DNA from: Longimicrobiales bacterium
GTDB taxonomy: Bacteria; Gemmatimonadota; Gemmatimonadetes; Longimicrobiales; Gaopeijiaceae
Length of the DNA stretch: 64,000 nucleotides
Assembly: GCA_965198065.1 (NCBI GenBank)
Contig: CBDAON010000004.1
Coordinates: 1,600,001 to 1,664,000 of the forward strand
Direction: 5' to 3'
Part shown: positions 18,968 through 20,282 of the stretch, one piece after another
Position numbering within the stretch: the stretch's first letter is position 1
Layout: each line of letters opens with the position of its first letter
Position numbers and translations under genes: made by a program
Notes under the pieces: generated by a model
Database searches by the model: none
What the model saw: the letters and a program-made list of their open reading frames with translations, nothing else
What the model was told of the DNA's origin: nothing

Positions 18968-20282
18968 GTGAGCCGGCCCCTCGATCTCGACGATCTGACG
19001 CCGCGCCAGGTGCGCGCCTTCCGGCGCTCCATCCTCCGCTTCTACGACGAGCGCGGGCGCGATCTGCCGTGGCGGGAGACCCAAGATCCGTATGCGATCC
19101 TCGTCTCGGAGGTGATGCTCCAACAGACGCGCGTCGAGACGGTGGTTCCGTACTACGAGAAGTGGATCGCGCGCTTCCCCAGCATCGGCGCACTGGCCGA
19201 AGCGGAGACGGACGAGGTGCTCAAGCTCTGGGAGGGGTTAGGGTACTACGCGCGTGCGCGGAACCTCCGTTACGAGCAGACTTGATGTTCGTCCAATAGT
19301 CGGGTACTACGCGCGTGCGCGGAACCTCCACCGAGCCGTGCGAGAGATCGAGGCCCGCTACGACGGCTGGATCCCCGGGGACCCTGACGAGCTCCGGGGC
19401 CTCCCGGGGATCGGCGCGTACACGGCTGGGGCGGTGGCCTCGATCGCGTTCGACGTGCCGGTCCCCGCGGTGGACGGGAACGTGCGTCGCGTCCTCGCCC
19501 GGTTGGCCGACGACCCGGCGCCTCCCCTGGCCCGGCTCGAACGCTGGGCGTCACGCCTCGTGGATCCGGACCGGCCCGGTGCGTTCAACCAGGATCTGAT
19601 GGAGCTTGGGTCGACGTTGTGCACGGCCCGCGCCCCCGTGTGTGGCAGCTGCCCGGCCGGCAGGTGGTGCCGAGCGCGCCAGTCGGGCACCGTCGAGATG
19701 CGGCCGCGTCGGAACCCCAAGCGCGGCGTCCCCACTCTGACAGAAGCCGTCGTGATCCTCGTCGACCTAGCTGACGGGGACTGGAGGATTCTGCTGAGGA
19801 AGCGACCGGAGCAAGGGCTCCTGGCCGGGCTGTGGGAGTTCCCGGGCCGACCCGTGGGGTCGAGGCGGAGCGCACGGGCCGAGGCGCTGACCTGGCGTGG
19901 GAGCTGGTGGGGGCGGAGCGGGGGCCGAAGAACGGAGTCTGGTCTGCGCCCGATGCCGGGGACGCGGTGGCCGGTCTGCTCTTCGGTCGCGAGGCCGTCG
20001 CGCTACCCCCTCTCGAACACGCCTTCTCTCATCGGCGAGTGCGGTATTTGCCGTTCCTTAGTCTCGGTGGATGGGGCTTGCCGCGACGAGGGGCCCGAGA
20101 GTGGTATGCCGAGAACCGGAGGGGGCGAGAGTGGGTCGGGGTCTGGACGACCGGTGGGGGGAGCGCCTCGGTGGATCCACCGAGGCGAGGAATCGGATCT
20201 CGCACTTCCCTCGGCTCAGCGAGAGCTACTCCGGCGTGCCTGGGACCAGCTTTCGGAGCTCGCCCGTAGAAGACGGACGTGA
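18968..20282 (+). pseudogene. mutY: A/G-specific adenine glycosylase MutY, disrupted
   Basis: RDLPWR, SEVMLQQT, GLGYYARARNL, LPGIGAYTA, VDGNV, Fe-S loop CX6CX2CX5C, GLLAGLWEFP, HAFSH. A 61-bp insertion gives TGA at 19283. Two more compensating frameshifts near 19889 and 20058. Confidence 0.9.
19241..19329 (+). repeat. Exact 28-bp direct repeat flanking a 33-bp unique insert (one repeat-spacer-repeat unit, CRISPR type I-E-like geometry)
   Basis: GGGTACTACGCGCGTGCGCGGAACCTCC at 19241-19268 and 19302-19329. Insert GTTACGAGCAGACTTGATGTTCGTCCAATAGTC at 19269-19301. Confidence 0.95.

Follow-up and report, generated by a model that had tools for sequence, protein, structure and literature searches.

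In the window (the whole stretch of DNA that was analysed, 64,000 nt), the gene mutY is interrupted at 19241..19329 by an exact 28-nt direct repeat placed around a 33-nt insert, which gives a period of 61. The two copies of the repeat lie on the forward strand at 19241-19268 and 19302-19329; their identity extends no further on either flank, and the first copy, which spans the mutY codons of the G-Y-Y-A-R-A-R-N-L region, occupies the position that a repeat would have in a CRISPR unit. Between them, the insert (19269-19301) has 15 G+C among its 33 nt, compared with a contig GC of 67%, it begins with G on either strand (the forward orientation fits slightly better), and its longest other match in the rest of the assembly is at most 12 nt. 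An earlier note, made from the letters alone, had described the exact duplication, the unique insert of low GC content and its initial G in both orientations, and the coordinates bear out each of these points. A search of the 64,000-nt window against Rfam returned no matches.

The insertion divides mutY into two parts, both on the forward strand. The 5' fragment (18971..19285) matches TIGR01084 at positions 2-88 (E 1.4e-39) and carries the HhH-GPD domain, and its translation ends prematurely inside the insert, with NLRYEQT followed by a stop codon at 19283-19285, upstream of the HhH motif, Cys cluster and C-terminal domain. These latter elements, including a NUDIX-like C-terminal domain, reside in the 3' part (19302..20282), which matches TIGR01084 at positions 78-262 (E 2.2e-49) as well as HHH and NUDIX_4, and which the +61 shift separates from its start. 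Removal of the 61 bp had been said to restore the MutY motif, and excision in silico indeed gives an open frame of 416 codons with the sequence GLGYYARARNLH; this frame aligns with the intact MutY of G001, a genome of the same genus. By tblastn, no second mutY was found in the assembly; the other match, at 30% identity, is probably endonuclease III. The gene fpg/mutM is intact in the genome, so that the effect of a loss of mutY would stay limited to the MutY branch.

For comparison with sister strains we drew on ten runs from three studies, six of which hold most of the stretch and four of which were compared at mutY, all as contigs; runs X1-X4 (share at most 0.13) were left out as evidence, and the mutY comparison excludes X7, X9 and X10. 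In run X5, a single contig of 9287 nt covers the whole stretch with 0 differences; X5 may be the source of this DNA. In run X6, which bears another organism code and comes from another study, there are 0 differences over 1540 flanking bases, and the sequence passes directly from 19240 to 19302, skipping exactly 61 bases. The same 61 bases are absent from run X8, which otherwise shows 9 substitutions and 2 indels, and the 28-bp target is present as a single copy in both runs. The alignment of sister mutY alleles, which the earlier note had named as a check, thus supports it, with an empty site exactly 61 bases shorter in X6 and X8; the scar is strain-specific. Among mutY loci of other organisms, 83 of 91 are continuous across the site and have no insertion, and in a small sample of 80 GTDB mutY loci none contains a solitary duplication at periods 55-67 (two contain simple repeats). 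A single recent gain of the 61 bp would be the simplest history, and precise loss through recombination between the repeats in two lineages would be less economical.

As this comparison was made on contigs and not on raw reads, and as X5 may be the source sample, one could attribute the structure to an artefact of assembly or library, such as an adapter, a barcode or a chimeric read. However, a separate assembly pipeline recovers these 61 bp within a single long contig, the genome holds three different inserts at repeat-like sites, and degraded versions (26/28) are found in other genomes (see below); we consider the probability of an artefact practically negligible.

That the insertion knocks out mutY, as had been claimed, is only partly upheld: the reading frame is broken, but the insertion-free allele of X6 already has a 57-codon stretch out of frame and an Asp in place of an Ala. 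The out-of-frame segment (19888..20059, forward strand) lies between a compensating -1/+1 pair, with an HAFSH motif in the other frame; it is common to X6 and absent from X8, in which, relative to the sequence here, one base is inserted behind 19887 and one is omitted at 20059. About 57 codons of the C-terminal domain, the domain by which MutY recognises 8-oxoG, are consequently read out of frame in this genome, X5 and X6, and the alternative frame of the garbled segment matches the LPPLDHAFSH region of G001. The Asp codon (19593..19595, forward strand), a C-to-A change likewise common to X6, replaces the Ala found in X8 and in most relatives: of the 86 that were aligned, 76 have Ala at this position and none has Asp. 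Given that X6 already carries both the frameshift pair and the Ala-to-Asp change, the insertion was probably a second hit, which struck an already damaged mutY. In 3 of the 9 substitutions against X8 the base is A here and C there, too few for a mutator signature.

The assembly to which the window belongs comprises 3.05 Mb in 4 contigs and is 87.6% complete. The expectation that the genome should hold arrays of 28/33 geometry proved correct: contig C4 contains two type I-E-like arrays of period 61, with 28-nt repeats and 33-nt spacers, and contig C1 contains one array of period 71-72. When array 1 is cut with a 28-nt repeat, all 23 complete spacers are 33 nt long and all 23 start with G; in the forward part of array 2, 9/9 spacers measure 33 nt and 4/9 start with G. 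Array 2 (L002:9917-10725) has two adjacent duplicated spacers, and its direction reverses at a palindromic half-repeat junction ahead of an IS3-like piece, which may represent an inversion or a misassembly; insertion sequence (IS) elements adjoin both arrays. The array on contig C1 (37-bp repeat) was rejected as the source of the scars on account of its differing geometry; no solitary scars occur at its period, and no cas1 was found in the assembly. Its distal repeats decay (L003:2308-3400 and on).

Compared with the repeats of the genome's own arrays, the 28-bp target in mutY (site B) is identical at 16/28 positions for array 1 and at 15/28 for array 2, and its orientation is ambiguous (16 vs 15). 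The earlier count of 17/28 against the E. coli type I-E repeat also holds, by eye and with the E. coli string as quoted there. Of the genomic 28-mers, 0.16% (9,775) agree with the array-1 repeat at 16/28 positions or more, and since so many match the repeat equally well, resemblance alone does not single out the mutY site; the likeness makes the site eligible without making it unique.

Additional weight comes from the number and shape of such structures in the genome. A motif-free scan over periods 25-150 for exact duplications of at least 20 nt around unique filler, with the array regions excluded, recovered three solitary duplications at period 61. Site A (C4:740643-740731; L004:5643-5731) lies inside clpB, site B is the one in mutY, and site C (C4:1860217-1860305, minus strand; L005:5217-5305) is intergenic and follows the stop codon of a DUF4159 gene by a few bases. 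Each of the three is compatible with a 28+33 layout whose insert starts with G, and the register that gives this layout is also the one with the greatest likeness to the repeat. The array-1 repeat is matched at 18/28 positions (A), 16/28 (B) and 14/28 (C), with a background mean of 7.8, and the probability that three random best-strand sites sum to at least 48 is 4.6e-7. The same scan recovered no solitary duplications in the genome at periods 55-59, 62 and 63, and one each at period 64 and at period 60, the latter being a Gly-rich tandem repeat. Older, degenerate scars of period 61 were not found in this genome at a threshold of 24/28. The clpB gene at site A lacks about 150 codons, in frame, between the N-domain and the first ATPase module. 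G001 offers nothing closer to this clpB than a clpC-type match of 72%.

Could the structure have arisen without any CRISPR protein, from a repair accident (a double-strand break or a template switch) in which 28 bp were doubled and 33 bp of filler DNA picked up? The assembly lacks cas1, and short perfect duplications do occur elsewhere in the genome, at periods 47, 49, 50, 60 and 64. These, however, vary in length, whereas the three scars have one geometry in common, equal to that of the arrays, together with their likeness to the repeat, and scars in relatives accompany type I-E cas1; we therefore hold such an accident to be very improbable. Short perfect or near-tandem duplications with periods of 47-64 bp and without CRISPR geometry are located at C4:297493, 624517, 1706541, 1783838 and 2797839. 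Another conceivable origin is the footprint of a mobile element (a collapsed IS, a MITE, a casposon or the product of some other integrase) with an unusually long target duplication, and the IS elements next to both arrays would agree with it. Against this, the three inserts are mutually unrelated and none has a second copy in the assembly, and 28 bp exceeds the usual target duplications of IS elements, which are shorter; this origin appears extremely unlikely to us.

For an integration by Cas1-Cas2, the enzyme itself has to be accounted for. Here the genome search for type I-E cas1 and cas2 that the earlier note had named as a check gave a mixed outcome: neither gene was found in the 87.6%-complete assembly, and what the search did turn up is a cas5e remnant beside array 1. 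Neither cas7e nor cas6e was found in the assembly by searches that are insensitive (the control missed E. coli), and tblastn with the type I-E operons of three relatives (G040, G213 and G254) returned the cas5e remnant only. The remnant, of about 210 nt (C4:1504245-1504036; TIGR01868, E 9.5e-18), is situated about 750 bp from array 1 and adjoins a truncated IS1595, the other end of which is fused to array 1 (L001:11851-14245). No leader was found at array 1, and no cas genes beyond this remnant. By the usual type I-E gene order, the parts missing there are presumably cas6e, cas1, cas2 and the leader. The two type I-E-like arrays and the cas5e remnant show a former system. In X6, the remnant and the IS junction stand in one contig with 0 differences; since X6 lacks the insertion and yet has the same cas5e/IS junction, the cas locus must have been damaged before the strains split. 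Depth over the array-1 island is zero in 7/30 bins in X5 and full in X6 and X7; a gap in depth proves nothing. Given an assembly without cas1 or cas2, we infer the identity of the integrase. Three genes of the HU/IHF family were matched in the genome, with HU and IHF not told apart.

To survey the relatives, we derived a motif-pair pattern from the three sites of this genome. Applied to 300 other genomes of the order, it yielded 35 matches spread over 31 genomes, and every match was inspected. Four are solitary 28+33 duplications, a lower bound given that the pattern finds only scars resembling the three sites. The remaining 31 of the 35 matches were rejected: 25 show no duplication, four fall in one tandem repeat of G061, and two are longer tandem repeats (G139, L040; G171, L143). 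Of the four scars, those in G040 (L056) and G213 (L052) have a duplication of 28/28 and that in G254 (L030) one of 26/28, all in genomes with a type I-E cas1; the fourth, in G093 (L051), is again at 26/28, and no cas1 match was obtained there. Excision of 61 bp in G254 fuses two frames into one of 375 codons. A type I-E cas1 above the cut-off is present in 20 of the 300 genomes overall versus 3 of the 4 that bear scars (Fisher p 0.001, a value that is overstated since related genomes are not independent observations). Repeat position 27, which is outside the search pattern, is matched in 4/4 scars versus 7/28 other matches. When the seven scars are aligned with four true repeats, nine columns are invariant (1, 9, 10, 16-18, 20, 21 and 27), eight of which were fixed by the search pattern for the four relatives.

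Taken together, these observations favour the reading of the earlier note, in which the mutY scar stems from natural off-target spacer integration by a type I-E Cas1-Cas2, and we give it a probability of about 0.9; it is supported by the geometry of the genome's own arrays, the two further scars, the empty site in sister strains and the link with cas1 in relatives. Cas1-Cas2 would have carried a 33-bp prespacer with a PAM-derived G at one end, and would have recognised the central inverted-repeat-like bases and the end bases of the mutY stretch, mistaking it for a CRISPR repeat. The integrase would then have attacked both strands 28 bp apart, and host repair, in closing the gaps, would have left two copies of the target. 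The repeat-spacer-repeat structure displaces the frame by one base, and the protein ends before the HhH motif. The same integration very likely took place at the two other chromosomal sites (A and C). Its most likely source would be the system of array 1 before an IS1595-linked deletion of cas6e-cas1-cas2 and the leader; alternatively, the integrase may have been supplied by unassembled or mobile DNA. As for the order of events, the interference genes were most likely broken first, cas1-cas2 would have stayed active for a while and made the scars, and the deletion of cas1-cas2 would have followed. The donor of the insert was sought with less success. The earlier note had proposed to look for a source of the 33-mer next to an AAG PAM, and no full-length match appeared in the own genome, IMG/VR, the JGI metagenomes or phage and plasmid records: the exact 33-mer has no match in IMG/VR or the JGI metagenomes, and blastn in phage and plasmid records gave partial matches only (E 3-4), with no full-length protospacer. 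Likewise, no protospacer was found in IMG/VR for the inserts of sites A and C, and the own genome and the databases searched yielded neither a protospacer nor a PAM for the three inserts.

A process of this kind is already known from laboratory systems. Nivala, Shipman and Church reportedly described in 2018 that overproduced type I-E Cas1-Cas2 of E. coli gives rise to neo-CRISPR loci by non-canonical spacer integration. Off-target integration by the E. coli enzyme and the resulting neo-CRISPR loci are cited repeatedly (PMC11788318, PMC7054753, PMC6698737, bioRxiv 10.1101/148544), the E. coli work relied on overproduced Cas1-Cas2 and supplied oligonucleotides, and the evidence for natural off-target integration is described as circumstantial, from two species and of unclear frequency (bioRxiv 10.1101/148544). 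Like the E. coli loci, as far as these sources describe them, the mutY scar combines a spacer-sized insert with a repeat-sized duplication of type I-E geometry at a chromosomal site outside any array; unlike them, it is a natural event that breaks a gene, with an empty-site allele in sister strains and an assembly without cas1-cas2. The Cas1-Cas2 of Pyrococcus furiosus integrates in vitro at repeat-like sites outside CRISPR (PMC6698737), and integration at repeat-like sites is likewise stated in a review (PMC8047081). The P. furiosus sites agree with the cognate repeat at border and central bases, and the cuts are spaced by one repeat length, as at mutY, although that system is of another subtype, has a 30-bp repeat and was offered plasmid targets in the test tube. 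With a unit of the genome's canonical type I-E array the scar shares the 28+33 period and, as in array 1, the G-first spacer, whereas its "repeat" is a coding sequence of mutY, 16/28 identical and without a stable hairpin, in one unit only and with no cas genes nearby. In the literature searched, with most subscription journals outside its scope, we found no report of natural gene-breaking scars of such a kind. The mutY scar is very likely a natural example of an already known process.

The scar could alternatively have the same integrase origin and still be functional, either by having made the lineage a mutator or by yielding a working crRNA. It does abolish the only mutY that was found. The insertion-free X6 allele, however, with 0/1540 flanking differences from the sequence here, already has the garbled C-terminal segment and the Ala-to-Asp change. 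Furthermore, the mutY repeat does not form the Cas6e hairpin of a functional type I-E array, folding no better than its shuffles (z -0.14, vs -3.15 for the true repeat), and cas6e and cas7e were not found in the incomplete assembly. We regard a functional scar as unlikely. With a target without a stable fold and no Cascade genes found, the scar is best read as a dead lesion, and probably there is no working array at this site. The off-target scar was likely kept since mutY was already damaged, and as mutY and clpB both appear to have been decaying already, scars may survive where selection was relaxed.

The locus offers a clean natural example, in which cognate geometry, three events on one chromosome, an empty site in a near-identical strain and a cas1 link across the order come together. 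It points to a cost of CRISPR adaptation that is distinct from autoimmunity, and it provides a simple signature for genome surveys. The mutY aspect is less striking than at first, the gene having probably been damaged beforehand. More generally, we lean slightly towards the view that, in nature, off-target integration regularly acts as an insertional mutagen of type I-E bacteria. Each event would leave behind a 61-bp scar that can be counted; such scars would segregate between sister strains, remain after the cas genes are lost and survive chiefly in already decaying genes such as mutY and clpB. If so, they could reveal the motif that Cas1-Cas2 targets in vivo and be used to date CRISPR activity in the past.

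The counts do not demonstrate a heavy pseudogene load of the genome: in 14 stretches of G001, 245 ORFs gave 7 split junctions (in 6 ORFs), compared with 3 for 248 in the reverse control. At about 1.6 Mb (92% complete), G001, the only other genome of the genus, is half as large as the present one; genome reduction in the genus is possible.
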